Of a stretch of 64,000 nt of DNA, positions 11,478-23,699 are shown in pieces. The stretch lies in assembly GCA_946803585.1 (NCBI GenBank), contig CAMPEQ010000007.1:30451-94450 (forward strand). The letters run 5' to 3'. The translations under genes and the position numbers were made by a program. The notes below the pieces were generated by a model. That model saw nothing but the letters and a program-made list of their open reading frames with translations. It ran no database searches and was not told the DNA's origin. This DNA comes from an uncultured Actinomycetes bacterium (GTDB lineage: Bacteria; Actinomycetota; Actinomycetes; S36-B12; UBA10799). Position 1 is the first letter of the stretch, and each line of letters starts with the position of its first letter.

Positions 11478-12187
11478 CAACGACCACAGCCTTGGCCCTG
11501 CGGGTTCCCTCGGCTAGGGGCGCGGCGAATGGCCGCAATATTGGGCGGTTGCTGTTTCGAGGCCTGTATCGGCTCGATGTTCGCGGGGCTGAGCATGTTC
11601 CGCCACACGGTCGAGTGATCGTGGCGTGTAACCACATTGGTCTGCTCGACGGTGGTCTGCTGTTTAGCGCAGCGCCTCGGCCGTTGAACATCGTGGCAAA
11701 GTCCGAACTGTTCCAACCGCCACTCGATCGCCTTCTGCATAGTTCGGGCCAGATCCCGGTTGAGTACGAGGCGCCTGATCGCGCCGCAGTTCGCTCCGCA
11801 CTGGGGGTCCTCGAACGCGGTGGTGGCCTCGGGATCTTTCCTGAGGCGCATCGAGGGATTGGCGACTTTGGTCGGGCCCGGAACGGAATCGCCTACCTGC
11901 ACAGTCGAACAAATGCGCCAATAGTGCCCGCAGCAATGTTTGGCACACGCGAAACGGGAATGGGCAAGAACGATTTGCCCAAACTGCGCTCTCAGCTGAC
12001 GGTGGTCTTTGGTGAGCCGTTCTCTGTTGCGCCATACGGCGATATCGATCGACGATCGACACTGGCCGCTATGGGGGAATCAATCCGGCAAAAGCTAGCC
12101 GACCATTTGCAATACGCACTGGACCTCACCGGTGAGCAACTTCCAACAGACGACGTCTCAATCGGGGCAAAAGGAGTAACTCCATGA
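11474..12187 (+). CDS. 1-acyl-sn-glycerol-3-phosphate acyltransferase-like
   Basis: HX4D motif NHIGLLDG and FPEAHRG motif. ATGA overlaps with both neighbours. Confidence 0.85.
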
Positions 12188-13653
12188 GTTCCGAGGATTT
12201 CGTCGAGGACGAAGAGTCAGTTGCGACCTTTGATGTCGATGGAGATCAGGATGATCTCGCTGCGGCAGAGGCTGCAGCCCTCGCCGAGTTCGGTGACGAG
12301 GATGTTGTCGAGGATCTTGCGGTCGTGCCCGAGGAGATGCTTCCGGTCGCGGCAATCGTGGGCCGTCCAAACGTCGGCAAGTCAACCTTGGTCAATCGAA
12401 TCCTTGGCCGACGCGCTGCCGTCGTTGAAGATATTCCTGGCGTCACGCGCGATCGTGTTCGCTACGAGGCGGAGTGGGCCGGAACCAAGTTCTGGTTGGT
12501 CGATACCGGCGGGTGGGACCTGCGCAGTCAGGGCATGGCCTCACAGGTCAGCGAGCAGGCACGACGGGCCGCAATCGACGCCGATGTTGTGGTTCTCGTC
12601 GTCGACGCAACCGTTGGCATTACCGACGGAGATGCCGAAGCCGTCAAAATGTTACGCAAGAGCGGCACCCCGGTGCTCCTTGTCGCGAACAAGGTTGACT
12701 CCGCGCTGCTGGAGAGCGAAGCGGCAGCGCTTTGGTCCCTCGGCGCCGGCGAGCCGATATGCGTGTCCGCTCTTCACGGTCGAGGAAGCGGCGACCTACT
12801 CGAAGCACTGGTCAATACCTTCCCTGAAGAAGGCTCCGGGAAGGCAAGCGAAGAAGGTCCTCCCCGTGTTGCCTTACTCGGACGACCAAACGTCGGCAAG
12901 TCGAGTCTGTTGAACAAGCTGGCCGGCTCCCAGCGCTCAGTCGTTGATTCCGTGGCCGGAACCACCGTGGACCCGGTCGATGAGCTTGTCGAAATTGCTG
13001 GCCAAACCTGGCGCTTCGTGGACACGGCAGGGATCCGGCGCCGGGTTAAGACCGCAAGCGGCCCGGAGTGGTTTGCCAGCCTGCGCACCCAGACGGCGCT
13101 AGAACGTTCCGAAGTGTGCCTGGTGTTGTTCGATGCGAGCGAAGAGCTCAGCGAGCAAGACGTGCGCATTGTGTCCAAAGTGGTGGACTCCGGTCGGGCT
13201 CTAGTGTTGGTCATGAACAAGTGGGACCTCGTTGATGAGGACCGGCGGTACATGCTCGATCGGGAATACGACCGTGATCTACACCATGTGGACTGGGCTC
13301 CGCGAGTGAATATCTCGGCGAATACTGGTCGGCATCTGGACCGTCTTGCGGTGGCACTTGATGCCGCGCTCGATGGCTGGCAGACGCGAGTCTCAACCGG
13401 TCGTCTCAACCAGTTCCTTAAAGAGATCGTCGCGGCACATCCTCATCCGATCCGTGGTGGCAAGCAGCCGCGGATTCTTTTTGGAACTCAAGCCAGCGTC
13501 GCGCCGCCTACTTTTGTTCTCTTTACGACGGGATTTCTCGAGGCAAACTACCGTCGCTTCATCGAGCGACGCCTGCGTGAGGAGTTTGGATTCGAGGGCA
13601 GTCCGGTTCGGGTAGACATGCGAATCCGAGCCAAGCGCAAACGTCGAAAGTAG
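12184..13653 (+). CDS. der: Ribosome-associated GTPase Der (EngA)
   Basis: Two GTPase domains ([17 protein letters not shown] and [17 protein letters not shown]) plus a KH-like C-terminus. Acidic N-terminal extension of ~55 aa. Confidence 0.95.
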
Positions 13654-13681: not shown

Positions 13682-13755
<74 letters not shown>

Positions 13756-14805: not shown

Positions 14806-15552
14806 CTATCGATATTCGGGGTTGGGGTAGTCGAATCTGCAGCCTGCGTCCCACTCAGACCTCTGGTTACCGTGAGCGGGCAACCCACCAGAACTCTTGA
14901 GCAGGTTCGCCATATGCATGAGGTTCCAGGTCATGAACGTCGTGTTGCGGTTGGTGAAGTCGTTGTCTAGTCCGCCACCGGGGGAGTCCAGGTAGGACGG
15001 TCCGGGGCCCGCCTCGCCGATCCAACCGGCATCGGCCTGCGGCGGGATCGTGTAGCCGACGTGCTGGAGTGCGTACAGGATTCCCATGGCGCAGTGTTTG
15101 ATCCCGTCTTCGTTTCCGGTCACCAGGCATCCACCGACTTTGCCGTAGAAGGCGTATTGGCCTTCGGTGTTGAGGTTGCCCGATTCTCCGTAGAGGCGCT
15201 CGATCAGTTGGGTGGCGACACTGGACTTTTCTCCGAGCCAGATGGGGGTTCCGACGACCAGAATGTCGGCTTCCTTCACAACCTGGTACATCTGCGGCCA
15301 GTCATCGACGTCCCACCCGTGATCGGTCATGTCCGGGTAGACACCCGTAGCGATCTGGTGGTCAATAGCTCGGTATTCGCTGACCTCAACCCCGTTTGCT
15401 TTCATGATTGCGATTGAGCGATCCATCAGTGCCTGGGTATTCGATACCGACGGCGAACGCTTCAACGTGCAGTTGATGTACACCGCTGTCAAGTTCGAGT
15501 AGTCGCCGGGGAAAGTGCTGCAAAGCTGCTCATCGCGCTCAGAAACGCTCAT
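14806..15552 (-). CDS. Flavodoxin-like NAD(P)H-dependent FMN reductase family protein
   Basis: NCTLKRSPSVSNT...ADILVVGTPIWLGEKSS...GNEDG is typical of the flavodoxin-like fold reductases. ATG 15552 is preceded by GGAGG. The ORF-track start 15714 runs into the DUF427 gene. Confidence 0.8.
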   Translation of the reverse strand: MSVSERDEQLCSTFPGDYSNLTAVYINCTLKRSPSVSNTQALMDRSIAIMKANGVEVSEYRAIDHQIATGVYPDMTDHGWDVDDWPQMYQVVKEADILVVGTPIWLGEKSSVATQLIERLYGESGNLNTEGQYAFYGKVGGCLVTGNEDGIKHCAMGILYALQHVGYTIPPQADAGWIGEAGPGPSYLDSPGGGLDNDFTNRNTTFMTWNLMHMANLLKSSGGLPAHGNQRSEWDAGCRFDYPNPEYR

Positions 15553-15592
15553 TGAAACCTCCAAAATAGGGACTCTCTCCACGACTGGGTCG

Positions 15593-15883
15593 TCATGGCG
15601 ATTGGACGATCTGAATGACCGGTGAGAACGCAACGTGGTCACGAATGCCACGAATCCAGATCGGTGGGTGCGGGTAGAACCAGGCGACGTTCTTGACTTG
15701 TTCGCCGTCAACATTGAGGTGGTAGTAGGACGCGAGACCCTTCCAGTAACAGGGAGTGCGGAGGCGGGATGTTTCCAGCAGATTTTGATTCACCGCGTCA
15801 GGCGGGAAGTAGTGGTTGCCTTCCACAACACGGGTCGCGTCAGCCTCGGCGAGGACTGTGTCATTCCAGACTGCACGGATCAA
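15593..15883 (-). CDS. DUF427-domain protein
   Basis: 96 aa with VVEGNHYFPPDAV...RTPCYWKGLASYYHL...NVAWFYPHP (DUF427 pattern). TTG start with GGAGG 5 nt upstream. Confidence 0.8.
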   Translation of the reverse strand: MIRAVWNDTVLAEADATRVVEGNHYFPPDAVNQNLLETSRLRTPCYWKGLASYYHLNVDGEQVKNVAWFYPHPPIWIRGIRDHVAFSPVIQIVQSP

Positions 15884-15924: not shown

Positions 15925-15953
15925 CGAAACCCAGGTGGGGCGGCGTTCATTCC
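15925..15953 (-). promoter_or_regulatory. Candidate ECF-type promoter (tGGAAT-N18-GTTTCG) in front of the DUF427/FMN-reductase genes
   Basis: On the minus strand, GGAAT sits at 15953-15949 and overlaps the anti-sigma stop codon. An 18-nt spacer separates it from GTTTCG at 15930-15925, 41 nt upstream of the DUF427 TTG. The same motif occurs at three other sites nearby. Confidence 0.5.
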
Positions 15954-16234
15954 ATCTCTTGGGTGAGGTTTCGGCCGAAGTCGACGAGGTCGGCTACGGC
16001 TTGGGAATCTGCTGGTTCACTGAACTGCGTCGCCAGGCTTTCCTTGATTGCCCGGTATGTTTCGGCCTCTAATCCGCAGCGTTTACACGCCTCGAGGTGA
16101 CGCAGCACGCGGGTGTGGGTTTGTTCATCCGTTTGACCGTCTAGGACGGATTGCAGTAGTCGCGTTGCCTCCCGGCAGCTTGCGACATCTTTGTCACCGA
16201 CGAGGCGACGCCACATGGACAGTTGACTAGTCAT
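15947..16234 (-). CDS. Zinc-associated anti-sigma factor (ZAS, RsrA/RshA-like), cytoplasmic
   Basis: 95 aa with no TM segment. HxxxCxxC motif (RHLEACKRCG) plus an upstream Cys (VASCREA). 4-nt overlap with the sigma gene. Confidence 0.8.
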   Translation of the reverse strand: MTSQLSMWRRLVGDKDVASCREATRLLQSVLDGQTDEQTHTRVLRHLEACKRCGLEAETYRAIKESLATQFSEPADSQAVADLVDFGRNLTQEME

Positions 16235-16782
16235 GACGGGATCCCTTCATGGAGTGCGGTCCGTTTGGCCACCACGCGGTCACGAATCTTTCGCCGAGCC
16301 CGGTGAAGTCTGCTCATCACGGTTCCTTCCGGAATCCCTAGGTAGGCGGCAGCCTCGGCGTAGGACAACCCATCAATATCGACGAGGACTATGACCTGGC
16401 GAGAGTCCTCGGATACTTCGGATAAGGCGGCGGCTACGACGTCATCTAGCTCTGTACGCATCACATGGTCCTCGGCTGAGAGTCCTTCGTCGGCATGTCG
16501 TTCGCGGGTAGTGTTTTCGGTTAGGTCAATCGGTTCAGGGCGCCGACGGCGGTGATTGTTGTAGTTGGCGTTGCGCATGATGGTGAGCAGCCACGACCGT
16601 GGGTGTCTCCCATCGAAGGTGTCCAGCGAACGCCACGCACGCAACAGCGTGTCCTGAACAAGGTCGCTAGCGTCAGCCGGTTGCGCCGTTAACGACTGTG
16701 CCACCCGAAGGAGGACCGGGACTTCTGGCAATACATCCCGTTCGAAGACCGCTCGAGCGTCACGTCGTTGAGGTTGTCCCAC
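16231..16782 (-). CDS. ECF (sigma-70 family group 4) RNA polymerase sigma factor
   Basis: 183 aa. Region 2 has DASDLVQDTLLRAWRS. Region 4 has LSYAEAAAYLGIPEGTVMSRLHRARRKIR. GTG start. Confidence 0.9.
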   Translation of the reverse strand: MGQPQRRDARAVFERDVLPEVPVLLRVAQSLTAQPADASDLVQDTLLRAWRSLDTFDGRHPRSWLLTIMRNANYNNHRRRRPEPIDLTENTTRERHADEGLSAEDHVMRTELDDVVAAALSEVSEDSRQVIVLVDIDGLSYAEAAAYLGIPEGTVMSRLHRARRKIRDRVVAKRTALHEGIPS

Positions 16783-16787
16783 CTAGA

Positions 16788-16818
16788 GGAAACCCGGTAG
16801 CCATATGCCCGTATTCCC
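16788..16818 (-). promoter_or_regulatory. Candidate autoregulatory ECF promoter (GGGAAT-N19-GTTTCC) of the sigma gene, probably leaderless
   Basis: On the minus strand, GGGAAT is at 16818-16813 and GTTTCC at 16793-16788. The GTT core ends 8 nt before the GTG start at 16782. Confidence 0.55.
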
Positions 16819-16861
16819 AAACTGAGGATCCCATTTCCGAGGGAGAATTTCTTTCAGAGTT

Positions 16862-16892
16862 GGGAAGGTTCGGCGGCGTCCGGGGGGTTTCC
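16862..16892 (+). promoter_or_regulatory. Candidate ECF promoter (GGGAAG-N19-GTTTCC) for the Met-rich membrane protein / ccdA / tlpA unit
   Basis: On the plus strand, GGGAAG is at 16862-16867 and GTTTCC at 16887-16892, ~50 nt before ATG 16944. It mirrors the motif on the other strand. Confidence 0.55.
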
Positions 16893-18464: not shown

Positions 18465-19042
18465 GAATCAGTGCGCGTCAACTTTCGATCACAGCGGCCC
18501 TCACACTTGCCGGAGTGGGACTTGCGGCGTGTGCAGGGGCTACCGATGCCCAGGTGTCGCCTCAGCCGCCGATCCCGACCGTGACCGCGCCCTCGCCGGT
18601 TGCCCCGGCAGCTCCGCAGTCCGCTGTGCCTGCTGCGCAAGCGATCTTGCCTGCTGTCACGGTTCGCGAGGTGAACAGCGGCAATTCTGTTGATCTTGCC
18701 TCGCTCACCGAGGCTGGGACTCCGACGCTGGTCTGGGCGTGGGCGCCTCACTGCCCGTACTGCAACGCCGAGGCACCCAAGTTGCAGAAGTTCGCGAGTG
18801 AAAACGTCGGCAAAATCAACGTTGTCGGTGTCGGAACACAGGATAGCTTTGGCCAGGCCGAAGACTTCGTAGCCAAACATGACCTGACCACGCCCACCAT
18901 GGTGTGGGACGAGAGCTTCGAGTCATGGACGACCATGGGGATTACTTCCATGCCGACGTGGATCCTGATAGGGGCAGACGGAGAACTCGTACTGCGTCAC
19001 TCTGGGCAGTTCCCGGAATCAGACATCGCTTCGCAAATCTAA
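18461..19042 (+). CDS. TlpA/ResA-like thioredoxin-fold lipoprotein (thiol-disulfide oxidoreductase)
   Basis: Lipobox LAGVGLAAC and CxxC active site WAPHCPYC. ATGA overlap with ccdA. Confidence 0.85.
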   Translation: MRISARQLSITAALTLAGVGLAACAGATDAQVSPQPPIPTVTAPSPVAPAAPQSAVPAAQAILPAVTVREVNSGNSVDLASLTEAGTPTLVWAWAPHCPYCNAEAPKLQKFASENVGKINVVGVGTQDSFGQAEDFVAKHDLTTPTMVWDESFESWTTMGITSMPTWILIGADGELVLRHSGQFPESDIASQI

Positions 19043-19098
19043 GCCTAGAACGAGACAGCAGGCATTGGTCGTGCAATCCAACCCAGGTCGCTGCGTGT

Positions 19099-19127
19099 GG
19101 AAGGAATCAGTCAGTCACCGGGTTTCC
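19099..19127 (+). promoter_or_regulatory. Candidate ECF promoter (tGGAAG-N18-GTTTCC) in front of the mycoredoxin gene
   Basis: GGAAG at 19099-19103, an 18-nt spacer, GTTTCC at 19122-19127, ~90 nt upstream of ATG 19219. Confidence 0.5.
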
Positions 19128-19218
19128 CTGGGGAATCGGAATCATATTCCGCCGCTACCCGCGGTATTGAAGACACGCTGCAGAACCTCAACTAGTCCAC
19201 GTCGGAAAGGCGCCACCA

Positions 19219-19473
19219 ATGAACCCTCAGCTCACTGTGTACTCAACGCGATGGTGCGGGTACTGCCTCCGTCTCAAATACCAACTAAAACGAGCGGGCA
19301 TTCCGTACACCGAGATCGACATTAACAAGGACCCTGCTGCTGCCGCCGCGGTTGAACGATTCAACGGAGGTAACCGAACTGTGCCGACGGTGGTTTTGGC
19401 TGATGGCACTGCCCTGACCAACCCGTCGCTGGCCGATCTCCAGCGAGCGCTTTCTTCCGACGCTCGTGGCTGA
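19219..19473 (+). CDS. Mycoredoxin / glutaredoxin-like protein
   Basis: 84 aa. The N-terminal TVYSTRWCGYCLRLK (CGYC) and the RTVPTVVL motif are typical of mycoredoxin-type glutaredoxins. Confidence 0.85.
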   Translation: MNPQLTVYSTRWCGYCLRLKYQLKRAGIPYTEIDINKDPAAAAAVERFNGGNRTVPTVVLADGTALTNPSLADLQRALSSDARG

Positions 19474-19500: not shown

Positions 19501-20865
19501 GTGACAGATAGTCCAGATCTGCTGGTCATTGGCGGTGGCACGGCCGGGCTTTCCGCTGCACGAACTGCTCGACGGTTCGGGCGCTCGGTGGTGATGGTGA
19601 CGGACGGAGAACCGGGCGGAGATTGCACATTCACGGGCTGTGTTCCGTCGAAGACGTTGCTCGCTAGCGGGCGCCTGCCGTTTGCTGAGGCGATCAGCCG
19701 CGTGCACGCCACTGTTGACGAGATCGCCGCAACAGAGAACTCTGATGTGCTTCGGGCCGAAGGTATTGACGTAGTTGTTGGGCGTGCAGACGCGCGTGCG
19801 CGGGATTGCGTTGAGGTTGATGGTCGTGTGCTTACGCCAGAGTCGTTGGTCATCGCCACAGGTAGTGGTCCGGTAATACCGCCGATTCTCGGGATTCGCG
19901 ATGTCGCCTATCTGACGAACGAGAACCTGTTCGAGCTCACGGAACTACCTGAGCATCTGCTAGTCGTGGGTGGCGGAGCAATCGGGGTCGAAATGGCTCA
20001 GGCATTTATCCGCCTTGGCTCGCGAGTGACTATCCTTGAAGCCGGTGCCAGGCTGATTGGCAAGGAAGAGCCTGAAGCATCCGCTGTTGTTGGCGAGGTG
20101 CTGGGCCGTGACGGAGTTGACGTGTATCTGGACACCACCATCTCCGAAGTTGCCCGAACGGGGACGGTGATTACGGCCACGACTAGCAGAGGCGACATCC
20201 ACGCCAGCCACCTGCTTGTCGCCGCTGGACGTCAAGCCCGGGCCTGCGGGTGTGACGCTTTAGGGATAGTCCGCAGTGAGCGTGGTGCAATCAGGGTGGA
20301 CGCGCGGATGCGCACCAGTGTTGCTGGGGTGTACGCGGCCGGTGACGTGACTGGGCGCTTGGCGTTCACTCACGCCGCCGATGAGATGGGACGGGTGGCG
20401 GCCACTAACGCGCTACGTAAACTCCCGCTTCGATTCAAGGAACACGCTATTCCGTGGGTGACCTTCACCAGTCCAGAAGTGGCTCGTGTCGGTCTGACGG
20501 AAAGCCAAGCAGCTCAGCACACTCGCGGTGCCCGCGTCGTCGAACTTCCAATGGCAGACGTCGATCGCGCCCGAACGTCCGGACACACCGACGGGTTCAT
20601 CAAAATCATCGTCGGCCCACGAACGATCTTGCGTAACGCCGGTGGAGGCAGGGTGCTCGGAGCCACGATCGTCGCTGATCGAGCTGGCGAAATGATCGCC
20701 GAACTTGCCCTTGCTATCCGAACAACCATGTTCACCGGGAGACTGGCCCAATCGTCCCATGCCTATCCCACCTGGTCAGTCGGCGTGCAGCAAACTGTCG
20801 GCCAGATTTTTGGGGTTGGTGACCGTAAACCGCGGCCCGCCCGAAAGGAGTTCCACCGTGCCTGA
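19501..20865 (+). CDS. FAD-dependent pyridine nucleotide-disulfide oxidoreductase (glutathione/mycothione reductase-like)
   Basis: GGGTAG FAD motif, redox-active GGDCTFTGCVPSK, second Rossmann motif VVGGGAIGVEMAQ, and a C-terminal dimerisation domain with HAYPTWS. Confidence 0.9.
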   Translation: MTDSPDLLVIGGGTAGLSAARTARRFGRSVVMVTDGEPGGDCTFTGCVPSKTLLASGRLPFAEAISRVHATVDEIAATENSDVLRAEGIDVVVGRADARARDCVEVDGRVLTPESLVIATGSGPVIPPILGIRDVAYLTNENLFELTELPEHLLVVGGGAIGVEMAQAFIRLGSRVTILEAGARLIGKEEPEASAVVGEVLGRDGVDVYLDTTISEVARTGTVITATTSRGDIHASHLLVAAGRQARACGCDALGIVRSERGAIRVDARMRTSVAGVYAAGDVTGRLAFTHAADEMGRVAATNALRKLPLRFKEHAIPWVTFTSPEVARVGLTESQAAQHTRGARVVELPMADVDRARTSGHTDGFIKIIVGPRTILRNAGGGRVLGATIVADRAGEMIAELALAIRTTMFTGRLAQSSHAYPTWSVGVQQTVGQIFGVGDRKPRPARKEFHRA

Positions 20866-21736
20866 CCAGGTGACGCGCATTGTCGTCGATTCCGGCGCGC
20901 AAATGACGCCCGTGCTGCGCGAACGGTTCAAAGCAGAGGTGGTTCCGGTCGGTATCGTGGTCGACGGAGTGGCCTACAGCGAGGGCGAGGATATCGACCT
21001 CGCGAAGATCAGCGAAGTGCTCGCGCGAGGTGCCACGGTCAGCACCTCGACACCGAGCCCCGGAGACTTCCTCCGAGCATATGAGCGCTGCGCCCGAGAC
21101 GGGGCGACCCAGATCTTGTCGGTGCATACCGGCGGCACGCTGTCGTCCACGGCCAGTACCGCGCGGCTGGCTGCCGCCTCTGCTGAGATTCCAGTAGTCG
21201 TCGTTGATACCGGCACCGCCTCATTCCCGGTGACGATGAGCGCGTGGAGTGCTGCGGACGCATTGGCTGCCGGTGCCACTCTGAAACGGGCAATGACAAT
21301 CGCAATGGCTACTGCTGCGGCCATCGATAGCGTCTTCATTTTGGGTGCGCCTGAGCTTGCTGCCCGCGGGGGGCGTCTCATCGATCGCGATGCAATCGAA
21401 GGGACAGCGGTCGTCGCGTTCACTGACGGCGAGATGAAGGTCGTTGGTCATGTCAAAAGTCCCGAAGACGCGATCGCTGCCATGGCGGACTATGTTCAAG
21501 CGCGGAGCGACGGTGAGCTCCTACGAATCGGAGTGGGTCACATTGGTGCCTCCGAGTTGGCCGCCACCTTGGCCGACGTGCTGGAATCCCGGCAAAGGGT
21601 TGAGAACCTCGTTCACTACGACATCGGTCCTTCTATCGCAGTCCACACCGGACTAGGAACAGTCGGCTGCGTCTTTCACAAGAGCCAGCCCATTCAGGGC
21701 ACCTTCACGGTGCCGGTACGCGAGAATCTCCTCTAG
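20858..21736 (+). CDS. DegV-family fatty-acid-binding protein (FakB-like)
   Basis: IVVDSGAQM... with a DegV-like length and profile. GTG 20858 is preceded by AAAGGAG and overlaps the upstream stop by 8 nt. Confidence 0.8.
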   Translation: MPDQVTRIVVDSGAQMTPVLRERFKAEVVPVGIVVDGVAYSEGEDIDLAKISEVLARGATVSTSTPSPGDFLRAYERCARDGATQILSVHTGGTLSSTASTARLAAASAEIPVVVVDTGTASFPVTMSAWSAADALAAGATLKRAMTIAMATAAAIDSVFILGAPELAARGGRLIDRDAIEGTAVVAFTDGEMKVVGHVKSPEDAIAAMADYVQARSDGELLRIGVGHIGASELAATLADVLESRQRVENLVHYDIGPSIAVHTGLGTVGCVFHKSQPIQGTFTVPVRENLL

Positions 21737-21762
21737 ACATCCGAAGCCGCTTGAATCGTTGT

Positions 21763-22470
21763 ATGAAGGGATCCATGAACGGCACGAGCGTTGCGCGCCT
21801 TCGCCTAGATCGCCATGCTGCAGGGCCTGCTGTTCTGCTTAGAATCGCAACCGTTGCCGGGGGATACTTGCTGGGCTCGCTACCCGCTGCAGATGGCGTT
21901 AGTGCGATCGCCGGTGCGAATATTCGTGCGTCCGGAACAGGGAATCCTGGCGCGCTCAACACCGCAGTCGTCGCGGGGAAGCGCTGGGCGAGCGTTGTCG
22001 CAGGACTAGACATCAGCAAAGGCTGGTTGGCGTCGGCGATCGGGGCACACGTCTCACCCGCGACCGCCAATGCCGCCGGTGTCGCCGCCGTCGTCGGCCA
22101 CATATTTCCTATTTGGTCTGGCGGGCGCGGGGGTAAGGGTGTGGCGACGTCTTTCGGGGTGGTGCTGGGAACCTTTCCTGCCTACGCGGTCCCCGACCTC
22201 GCGATCGCCGCGGCTTTCGCGAAAGCCACGGCCAACCCAGTGCGTGCGAATCAGTTGGCAAGTGCGGCCTGGACGGGGGCAGCCACGCTTTGGTGGTGGC
22301 GAGCGTGGCCCAATCTGTGGGGGCCGAGGCCGACGATCGCGCTGCCGTTGAGCGCACTGTTAACCAGCGTCCTGTTGGCATGGCGAATGAATCAGCCCGA
22401 CTCAGTCAGTGGCGGCGACCGTTGGGCGAAGGCAACGTTTGGTTGTCCGCAATCGAACGGACCGTCATGA
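21763..22470 (+). CDS. plsY: Glycerol-3-phosphate acyltransferase PlsY (acyl-phosphate dependent)
   Basis: GYLLGSLP, IRASGTGNPGALNT and SGGRGGKGVATSFG motifs. The start is ambiguous (TTG 21751, ATG 21763 or ATG 21775). Confidence 0.85.
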   Translation: MKGSMNGTSVARLRLDRHAAGPAVLLRIATVAGGYLLGSLPAADGVSAIAGANIRASGTGNPGALNTAVVAGKRWASVVAGLDISKGWLASAIGAHVSPATANAAGVAAVVGHIFPIWSGGRGGKGVATSFGVVLGTFPAYAVPDLAIAAAFAKATANPVRANQLASAAWTGAATLWWWRAWPNLWGPRPTIALPLSALLTSVLLAWRMNQPDSVSGGDRWAKATFGCPQSNGPS

Positions 22471-23699
22471 AGTGGGCAGTTATCGGCGCCGGCTATAGCG
22501 GCATCGCCGCCGCCGCTGCGATGCTGGCAGAGGGAATCGACGTCGATGTGCTGGATAAGCGCGCTGATGTTGGAGGTCTGTGGCTAGACGGTGTCTATCC
22601 CTCAGTCCGGTTGATCACCACAAAGGACCGCAGCGCCTACCCGGATCGGCCGATGGCCAGCTCCGGAGTCTTTCCGTCGAGCACCGAGATGCTGACGTAC
22701 CTGCACGACGTTGCAGTTGACGCCGGTGTGCGCGACCGCCTCATCAATCGCGATGTCAGTTCCGTGACTCCAACTGGGGACCACTGGGATGTTGACGGGG
22801 AACGATACGCCGGGGTAGTGCTGGCCACCGGATTGTTTAGTGAGCCACACCTTCCTCATTTACCCGGCGATTCGACAATCCCGTCCCTACATACAAGTGC
22901 ATACCGAACCGTAGGGGACCTTGGCGACAATGTCCTCGTCGTGGGGATGGGGAACTCGGGGGCTGATGTCGCCCACGACTGTGTTAAGGCGGGAAAGCGC
23001 GTCACCATCGCAGTTCGGCGCGGGCGCCACATCATACCCAAGCGAATCCTCGGTCGACCTGTCGTCGATATGGAGCGGCCCCGGTTTCTACCAGACTTGG
23101 CGACCCGGGTCGCAATGGATCTATCCGCCAGAACTATCTCAGCGTTCTGGCGACGTGGGCGCCTGGCCAAGCCACGCCATCTTTTTCTCGCGGAAACACC
23201 GGTCATCCATTCAGCGCTCCTCCCGCTCATTAGCAACGGCTCCATCGTGGTTCGTCCGGGCGTCGCGCGCTTCGATGGACGGGTTGCGGAGTTCGCTGAT
23301 GGATCATCAGAACGCTTCGACACCATTGTCTGGGCAACTGGCTACCGCTATGACCTGCCCGTAGATCGCCGACTCGTCGATGGCTCGACTGCTGGCTACG
23401 GGGCTTCTGGACTGTCACTTGTTGGCGGCGTGTGGTCGCCGATCACGCCTGGTCTCGCCTGTGTTGGCTATCGGGAACCTCGCAACGGTCGCGGTCCCTA
23501 TCTGCACGCTGCAGCCGGCCTGACCGCTGCCGGTGCTCGCGCTCAAAGCCAGACACTCGAACCGATCGGTGCGCTGCTAGCTGAAACTGCCGCGCCAACC
23601 GCGAAGACCCTCATTGACGACGGCCCCGAAATTCGCCGCGTTCAACGGCTCACGGATGCGGCGAGAACAATCGCTGCCTCACCGCCAAAGCGGGGTTGA
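22467..23699 (+). CDS. Flavin-containing monooxygenase-like NAD(P)/FAD-dependent oxidoreductase
   Basis: Two dinucleotide motifs (VIGAGYSGIAAA...DVGGLW and VVGMGNSGADVA). ATGA overlap with plsY. The ORF-track start 22290 lies inside plsY. Confidence 0.8.
   Translation: MKWAVIGAGYSGIAAAAAMLAEGIDVDVLDKRADVGGLWLDGVYPSVRLITTKDRSAYPDRPMASSGVFPSSTEMLTYLHDVAVDAGVRDRLINRDVSSVTPTGDHWDVDGERYAGVVLATGLFSEPHLPHLPGDSTIPSLHTSAYRTVGDLGDNVLVVGMGNSGADVAHDCVKAGKRVTIAVRRGRHIIPKRILGRPVVDMERPRFLPDLATRVAMDLSARTISAFWRRGRLAKPRHLFLAETPVIHSALLPLISNGSIVVRPGVARFDGRVAEFADGSSERFDTIVWATGYRYDLPVDRRLVDGSTAGYGASGLSLVGGVWSPITPGLACVGYREPRNGRGPYLHAAAGLTAAGARAQSQTLEPIGALLAETAAPTAKTLIDDGPEIRRVQRLTDAARTIAASPPKRG

Follow-up and report, generated by a model that had tools for sequence, protein, structure and literature searches.

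GENE CONTENT OF THE LOCUS

The window, as we call the whole 64-kb stretch of DNA analyzed here, contains a plus-strand gene for a mycoredoxin (19219-19473). The 84-amino-acid product carries a CGYC active site, matches PF00462, and scores 95.8 bits on the TIGR02200 model against a cutoff of 89.5. A ribosome-binding site, GGAAAGG (19204-19210, plus strand), was read from the sequence 8 nt before the ATG, and its position is kept in the related locus L086. Next on the same strand is a gene for an FAD-dependent pyridine-nucleotide disulfide oxidoreductase with a CTFTGC redox center (19501-20865), hereafter the reductase, which was assigned by domain match and scores below every NCBIfam equivalog cutoff. 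Genes for DegV, PlsY, and a flavin monooxygenase follow it, all on the plus strand. Among 5.8 billion proteins, the nearest homologues of the reductase and the mycoredoxin are 77 to 82% identical; no mycoredoxin relative above 82% identity was found in the databases searched, and the mycoredoxin cluster is a singleton.

The gene order downstream of the mycoredoxin gene is conserved beyond the window. The series reductase, DegV, PlsY, (4HBT thioesterase), and flavin monooxygenase, which spans 19501 to 23699 here, recurs in the related loci L081 to L085 and L001, and this synteny ties the disulfide reductase to genes of lipid metabolism (fatty acid binding by DegV and the acyltransferase PlsY).

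Upstream of the mycoredoxin gene, the plus strand encodes a 156-amino-acid membrane protein that belongs to no known family, a CcdA/DsbD-type membrane protein, and a TlpA/ResA-like thioredoxin-fold protein. Diverging from these on the minus strand are the genes for a sigma factor and an anti-sigma factor, a DUF427-like gene, and an open reading frame (ORF) that looks flavoprotein-like, as judged from its sequence only. Homologues of the DUF427-like gene in related loci have the PF04248 domain. Between 14806 and 15883 on the minus strand, the DUF427 ORF (15593-15883) shares about 120 nt with the longest version of the ORF that follows it (14806-15714); this second gene probably starts at an internal methionine, around MSVSERDEQ. 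Farther away, a plus-strand tRNA gene (13682-13755; RF00005, 63.7 bits) lies just past a der/engA-like GTPase ORF (12184-13653).

A SigH-LIKE SIGMA FACTOR AND ITS ZINC ANTI-SIGMA FACTOR

The sigma factor gene (16231-16782, minus strand) lies 2.3 kb upstream of the mycoredoxin promoter described below and encodes a SigH-like extracytoplasmic function (ECF) sigma factor with the domains Sigma70_r2 (PF04542) and Sigma70_r4_2 (PF08281). It overlaps, at 16231-16234, the gene for a 95-amino-acid zinc anti-sigma factor (15947-16234, minus strand), which was recognized by a zf-HC2 domain (PF13490; 34.1 bits). The best solved relative of the sigma factor is SigH from Mycobacterium tuberculosis (5zx2; E value of 3.8e-24), and the anti-sigma factor found no match in the PDB. 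The sigma factor reaches 105.5 on the SigH_actino model (TIGR02947; cutoff, 251.55), and the anti-sigma factor reaches 28.3 on the RsrA model (TIGR03988; cutoff, 62.5). Because both scores fall below their cutoffs, we regard the pair as a SigH/RshA-like paralogue rather than an orthologue, and redox control of the pair is proposed by analogy.

The analogy draws on the spacing of cysteines and a histidine. Like the RsrA/RshA ZAS proteins, the local anti-sigma factor is small and soluble, is encoded by a gene that overlaps the sigma gene, and has an H-x3-C-x2-C arrangement plus a cysteine 26 residues before the histidine. Its C20 and H46-x3-C50-x2-C53 correspond to C11, H37, C41, and C44 of RsrA (PMC3177212). 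The flanking residues agree in part with the proposed redox sensitivity signature (LEAC-KRC-GLE against FEEC-SPC-LEK), and the redox sensitivity of the local protein is putative.

Orthologues of the sigma/anti-sigma pair (about 50 to 92% identity) adjoin the reductase gene in at least 15 loci from Actinomycetota and Acidimicrobiales. A more distant sigma factor (32% identity) with a 111-amino-acid zf-HC2 partner occurs at positions 2120 to 3081 of L081 to L083, loci that also contain an EPSP-synthase gene. This setting resembles what we take, from mycobacterial gene order, to be the sigH neighborhood; the distant pair may be the true SigH/RshA of that clade and a possible source of cross talk at GGAA-N-GTT promoters.

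A PREDICTED ECF PROMOTER 5' OF THE MYCOREDOXIN GENE

The TlpA-like gene stops at 19042, which leaves a gap of 176 nt before the mycoredoxin ATG at 19219. Within this gap, on the plus strand, lies the two-box element GGAAGG (19099-19104)-N17-GTT (19122-19124). The -35 hexamer is kept as TGGAAGGAA in L086, L088, and L129, and the GTT is the core of a longer -10 element, GGGTTTCC (19120-19127), as evidenced by an alignment of 10 promoters and by the enrichment analysis described below. A GGAATC sequence that overlaps the -35 hexamer (19103-19108, plus strand) belongs to a conserved extended -35 box, GGAAGGAAnC, and is no independent site; it would not serve as a -35 box of its own because it lies only 13 nt from the GTT. 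In promoters of the SigH/SigR type, transcription usually starts 6 to 8 nt past the -10 GTT, and the usual distance would place the start here at 19130-19133 (plus strand).

For M. tuberculosis SigH, the experimentally defined consensus is GGAAYR-N17-18-GTT (PMC4803200). The arrangement in the window (hexamer, 17 nt, and GTT) equals the experimental optimum of that sigma factor (PMC4803200), and the deviation is at position 5 of the -35 box, which is G here and C or T in the consensus. A promoter scan of the 176-nt gap found no promoter of the sigma-70 type, and by eye there is no TANNNT hexamer in it.

A sequence-only reading of the window had described a GGAAG box, an 18-nt spacer, GTTTCC, a GGAATC tandem, and a GGAAT-cat-ATTCC inverted repeat in a 176-bp gap, and each of these can be read off the sequence at the positions given. 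It had also called the element the fourth copy of a motif, and four correctly oriented copies do surround the local sigma and anti-sigma genes. Its GTTTCC turned out to be part of a real extended -10 element, as evidenced by a GG-TT-C core that is unchanged in the 10 aligned promoters. Finally, its proposal of a thiol stress promoter in front of a mycoredoxin and disulfide reductase pair is supported by the gene identities, the SigH-type spacing, the nearby sigma/anti-sigma genes, and the conservation of both boxes.

DISTRIBUTION OF THE MOTIF WITHIN THE WINDOW

The loose motif GGAA-N17-20-GTT has 31 matches in the window against 21.7 expected, which is no enrichment, and it was therefore replaced by the specific GGGTT form. 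This strict motif, GGAA-N15-18-GGGTT, has 6 matches in the window against 1.46 expected, a count that none of 100 shuffles reached. Four of the six fall between 15.9 and 19.1 kb, in a 3.3-kb island where about 0.08 would be expected (Poisson P of ~1e-6), and these four are intergenic or at a gene end. The other two are antisense within long ORFs, as expected of chance matches.

Each of the four island copies points at a gene start. One lies before the DUF427 gene (motif at 15928-15953, minus strand; gene start at 15883) and has analogous copies before DUF427 in L084 and L091/L092. A second, predicted to be autoregulatory, precedes the sigma gene (16791-16817, minus strand) and is conserved in L086; a third precedes the membrane-protein/CcdA/TlpA-like operon (16863-16889, plus strand) and is conserved in L086 and L088. 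The fourth is the element before the mycoredoxin gene.

The geometry of the copy before the sigma gene (16782-16817, minus strand) bears on the sigma mRNA itself. The -10 GTT ends 9 nt before the annotated GTG start, a distance which suggests that the sigma mRNA is probably leaderless or that the true start codon lies further downstream; the geometry in L086 is identical. Divergent, back-to-back pairs of ECF motifs, whose -35 boxes are separated by anything from a few to about 45 nt, occur at 16791-16889 in the window and in L010, L011, L036, L047, L084, and L129. The gene units of the island appear to have one promoter copy each, and gene order is shuffled between genomes.

CONSERVATION OF THE PROMOTER IN RELATED LOCI

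The comparison set, 1.19 Mb in total, consisted of loci that encode homologues of the reductase, of the mycoredoxin, or of the membrane protein. The strict motif was defined on the window alone, without use of these loci, and its background in them is 0.042 per kb per strand. For 10 of 25 sigma orthologues and 13 of 67 reductase orthologues, the motif lies within the 220 nt before the gene; with duplicate loci removed, P is ~6e-11 and ~9e-11, respectively. In L084, it is also upstream of that locus's own mycoredoxin gene. A metagenome scan with the membrane protein yielded more sigma-island loci and no further mycoredoxin promoters.

The closest relatives are L086/L087, with 92% identity in the sigma factor and 82% in the mycoredoxin. 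In L086/L087, L088, and L129, both boxes of the mycoredoxin promoter are kept, as TGGAAGGAA[T/A/C]C and CCGGGTT[T/C]CCC, whereas most of the 10-nt spacer core has been replaced. Across the 10 aligned promoters from the island and its relatives, the GG-TT-C core of the -10 element is invariant, and most copies read GGGTTTCC.

These data bear on whether the element before the mycoredoxin gene is a promoter at all. The loose motif is common, and the element could be a chance match; the mycoredoxin gene would then depend wholly on transcripts that begin at the 16863 promoter and read through the membrane-protein/CcdA/TlpA operon. Such read-through is possible because a scan detected no terminator between the TlpA-like and mycoredoxin genes; the sole terminator-like site lies inside the mycoredoxin gene. 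However, four relatives retain both boxes although the spacer between them has diverged, and chance would supply only a small fraction of the four strict motifs observed in the island. We consider a chance match very improbable and hold with high probability that the promoter before the mycoredoxin gene is real. The element at 19099-19127 is most likely a stress-responsive promoter of the SigH/SigR class, a prediction made from its sequence and its conservation.

A second question is which sigma factor reads it. The ECF reclassification paper mentions ECF12, the group of SigR and SigH. The local system shares with SigH of M. tuberculosis and SigR of Streptomyces coelicolor the two-box arrangement GGAA(Y)R-N17-18-GTT, a sigma gene that is likewise cotranscribed with a small zinc anti-sigma gene and autoregulated (here by prediction), and what would be a thiol redox regulon. 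The mycoredoxin Mrx2, for instance, belongs to the SigH regulon of M. tuberculosis (PMC9841431). The local system differs from SigH/SigR in that its sigma and anti-sigma factors fall below the SigH_actino and RsrA cutoffs, half of the island -35 boxes are GGAAGG rather than GGAAYR, and the predicted regulon is a compact island around an FAD disulfide reductase rather than trxBC.

Given these likenesses, the promoter could instead be read mainly by a true SigH orthologue, a housekeeping thiol stress sigma factor encoded outside the island. The boxes fit the SigH consensus (PMC4803200), and L081 to L083 have the motif before the reductase gene with no paralogous sigma gene nearby, although the distant sigma/zf-HC2 pair is present in that locus. 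Overlap between ECF sigma regulons is also documented in Corynebacterium (PMC10012870). Against a true SigH stands the tight clustering of the motif near the sigma gene here and near its orthologues elsewhere, autoregulatory copies included. The local -10 element, GGGTTTCC, is also longer and more specific than SigH's plain GTT, and in L084, L085, and L091 the sigma, anti-sigma, reductase, and DegV genes form one operon. A leading role for an outside SigH is unlikely, though it deserves more weight than the other alternatives considered here, and we infer that the local sigma factor acts at the promoter, with a redox trigger and a start site near 19131.

THE LEADER AS A PROBABLE REMNANT OF A LOST REDUCTASE GENE

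The sequence between the promoter and the mycoredoxin gene is best understood by comparison with related loci. In L088 and L129, the promoter (GGAAGGAA) is followed by a gene of 450 to 456 codons for a second reductase of the Pyr_redox_2 family, here called red2, and then directly by the mycoredoxin gene. The red2 product is 34% identical to the window's reductase. In L130, the order is red2, mycoredoxin, one reverse-strand gene, reductase, and DegV, which is the order of the window plus red2. A red2 homologue in L131 was set aside, as it lies in an unrelated context.

In the window, the leader retains the 3' end of red2 as a relic at 19142-19207 (plus strand), as evidenced by tblastn, a nucleotide alignment, and a four-way alignment. 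In the tblastn comparison, residues 434 to 455 of the L088 red2 product match 19142-19207 with 54.5% identity over 22 amino acids. A local nucleotide alignment of the leader with the red2 3' end scores 43, against 14.6 ± 2.2 for shuffled sequence, and none of 1,000 shuffles reached 43. Positions 19160-19195 still encode RGIEDTLQNLN*, and the stop codon of the relic occupies the same column of the four-way alignment as those of L086 and L129. The relic is not translated, because no start codon precedes its frame.

The state of red2 in L086 is intermediate. There, red2 is an internally deleted pseudogene: the promoter and the ribosome-binding site of red2 survive, together with ten codons from the N-terminal end and the final ~24 codons. 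This pseudogene (L086:1541-1786; also in L087) keeps the ribosome-binding site, MKFVDAVVIG, and ...IYAYPTFHRGIADARWSLH*. L086/L087 also have no main reductase gene between the mycoredoxin gene and DegV, and this lineage therefore appears to have lost both reductases of the island. The three stages form a clear record of decay: red2 is whole in L088 and L129, lacks its interior in L086, and is reduced to a relic in the window.

Alignment of the leader with the red2 3' end identifies the leader, by sequence comparison, as gene loss debris, and the mycoredoxin gene is, on the same comparison, the heir of the red2 promoter. Promoter-proximal gene remnants, or pseudogene-derived 5' leaders, are not a defined family, and yet this description fits the leader better than any regulatory model: codons and the stop of a lost gene are likewise recognizable, and L086 supplies an intermediate.

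A short sequence at 19120-19129 of the window, CGGGTTTCCC, resembles CGGGTCCCC at L088:4894-4903, about 100 nt before the red2 stop in the relatives. It is tempting to imagine that this microhomology was used for the deletion of red2, and the idea is speculative because the bases just past the junction do not align.

THE GGAATC TANDEM AND THE DYAD

Two repeats lie close to the predicted start of transcription. The first is the tandem GGAATC GGAATC (19132-19143, plus strand), a lineage-specific sequence located where the promoter meets the gene relic. The second is the dyad CGGAAT-cat-ATTCCG (19137-19151), which has 6-bp arms and a 3-nt spacer and is one pair longer than the previously described GGAAT-cat-ATTCC (19138-19150). 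The right arm of the dyad (T-ATTCC) matches the Tyr-Pro codons TAT-CCC of red2, and the tandem falls in the poorly alignable stretch between the promoter and the relic. Directly after the conserved CCC of the -10 element, the four aligned sequences have nothing in common, and alignment showed the tandem and dyad to be absent from L086/L087, L088, L129, and L084.

Neither repeat is rare for this DNA. Inverted repeats with perfect arms of 6 bp or more and 3- to 8-nt loops occur at 0.21 per 100 nt in the window, or about once per 500 nt, and exact tandem duplications of 5- to 8-nt units also occur at 0.21 per 100 nt. GGAATC itself is found 74 times in the window against 37 expected from dinucleotide-preserving shuffles, probably as an effect of codon usage, and this twofold overrepresentation makes extra copies anywhere less surprising. 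Under random placement, three GGAATC sequences within 41 nt have a P of ~0.014, which is nominally unusual, and two a P of ~0.76; the tandem is probably the product of one mutational event.

It had been proposed that the extra GGAAT copies provide alternative -35 registers. None of them has a GTT 17 to 20 nt downstream, and within 19000-19300 only the pair at 19099-19124 has such spacing, so alternative registers are ruled out. The same reading had also suggested that the copies act as a decoy, or that a second regulator uses them as its operator. Neither suggestion is supported: the repeats are absent from relatives, the dyad is unique in the window, and the leader is best explained as the remnant of a gene.

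As an operator, the dyad, at about +7 to +21, could bind a second, dimeric regulator that blocks or modulates the ECF promoter. It is a perfect 6-bp palindrome directly past the predicted start, and 198 of 200 shuffles fold less well than the 17-nt stretch 19136-19152, which shows that the symmetry is locally real. An operator would be expected to recur, however, and the 64-kb window holds no further copy of the dyad. Its three matches in the 1.19 Mb of related loci adjoin neither a mycoredoxin gene nor a copy of the promoter motif, the one in L093 being inside a sigma homologue. The lack of the dyad in the relatives, the ordinary frequency of such palindromes here, and the origin of the right arm in codons of red2 count against an operator too, and no candidate regulator gene was found adjacent. 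We consider an operator improbable.

As RNA, the dyad could act as a hairpin near the 5' end of the mRNA, one that guards against 5'-end-dependent RNases or tunes the translation of mycoredoxin. It would lie no more than about 6 nt from the 5' end if transcription starts near 19131, and its free energy is -4.7 kcal/mol. Nonetheless, the stem is weak, and the leader as a whole folds no better than shuffled sequence, and indeed somewhat worse (z of +0.92), with sub-fragments forming a weak 6-bp hairpin at most. The ribosome-binding site is ~55 nt away and free in the predicted minimum-free-energy fold. The hairpin is not conserved in relatives, and an Rfam scan of 12 to 24 kb at an E value of ≤1 returned only the tRNA, with no family match in the leader. 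A role for the hairpin is about as doubtful as one for an operator.

A last proposal is that the three GGAATC units and the dyad, clustered at +1 to +20, are a recently evolved, lineage-specific control element. In one variant, region 4 of the ECF sigma factor, while still bound, would grip the downstream GGAAT copies anew and so pause the polymerase or slow promoter escape, as an ECF analogue of sigma-70-dependent promoter-proximal pausing. In another, the GGAAT copies would titrate the sigma factor by soaking up its free form. Some room for a function of the tandem or dyad that arose recently in this lineage is left because no genome above 82% mycoredoxin identity is available for comparison, and the proposal of such a control element strikes us as highly improbable. 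Most likely, the tandem and dyad have no conserved function, and we infer their neutrality.

A PROPOSED MODEL AND ITS IMPLICATIONS

Taking the promoter, the sigma factor, and the leader together, we favor as probable a joint reading in which a promoter of the SigH/SigR class is served by the local sigma factor and followed by a leader that remains from the deletion of red2. RNA polymerase together with the local SigH-like sigma factor, whose gene is 2.3 kb upstream, would most likely read the element at 19099-19127. The zinc anti-sigma factor would hold the sigma factor inactive until thiol oxidation frees it, and transcription from about 19131 would then cover the mycoredoxin and disulfide reductase genes and probably DegV. 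On this model, red2 once stood between the promoter and the mycoredoxin gene and was deleted; the ~88-nt leader would be what remains of it, and the tandem and dyad would be part of the scrambled deletion junction.

The findings here leave the current understanding of ECF sigma factors unchallenged. The promoter is of a well-known kind, and the conserved module of sigma factor, zinc anti-sigma factor, and FAD reductase, together with the decay record, adds slightly to its interest. The case also carries a caution for readings made from sequence only, in that box-like repeats beside a promoter can stem from the loss of a gene and need not reflect regulatory design.

For the biology of these bacteria, our analysis assigns a predicted, compact regulon to an uncharacterized SigH-like sigma/anti-sigma pair. 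Its putative members are the mycoredoxin, two families of FAD disulfide reductases, CcdA/TlpA-like thiol-disulfide proteins, DUF427, and a small membrane protein. Among uncultured Actinomycetota, Acidimicrobiia included, the pair is widespread, and the signature GGAA[T/G]-N16-17-GGGTTTCC could be used to predict its regulon in metagenome-assembled genomes.
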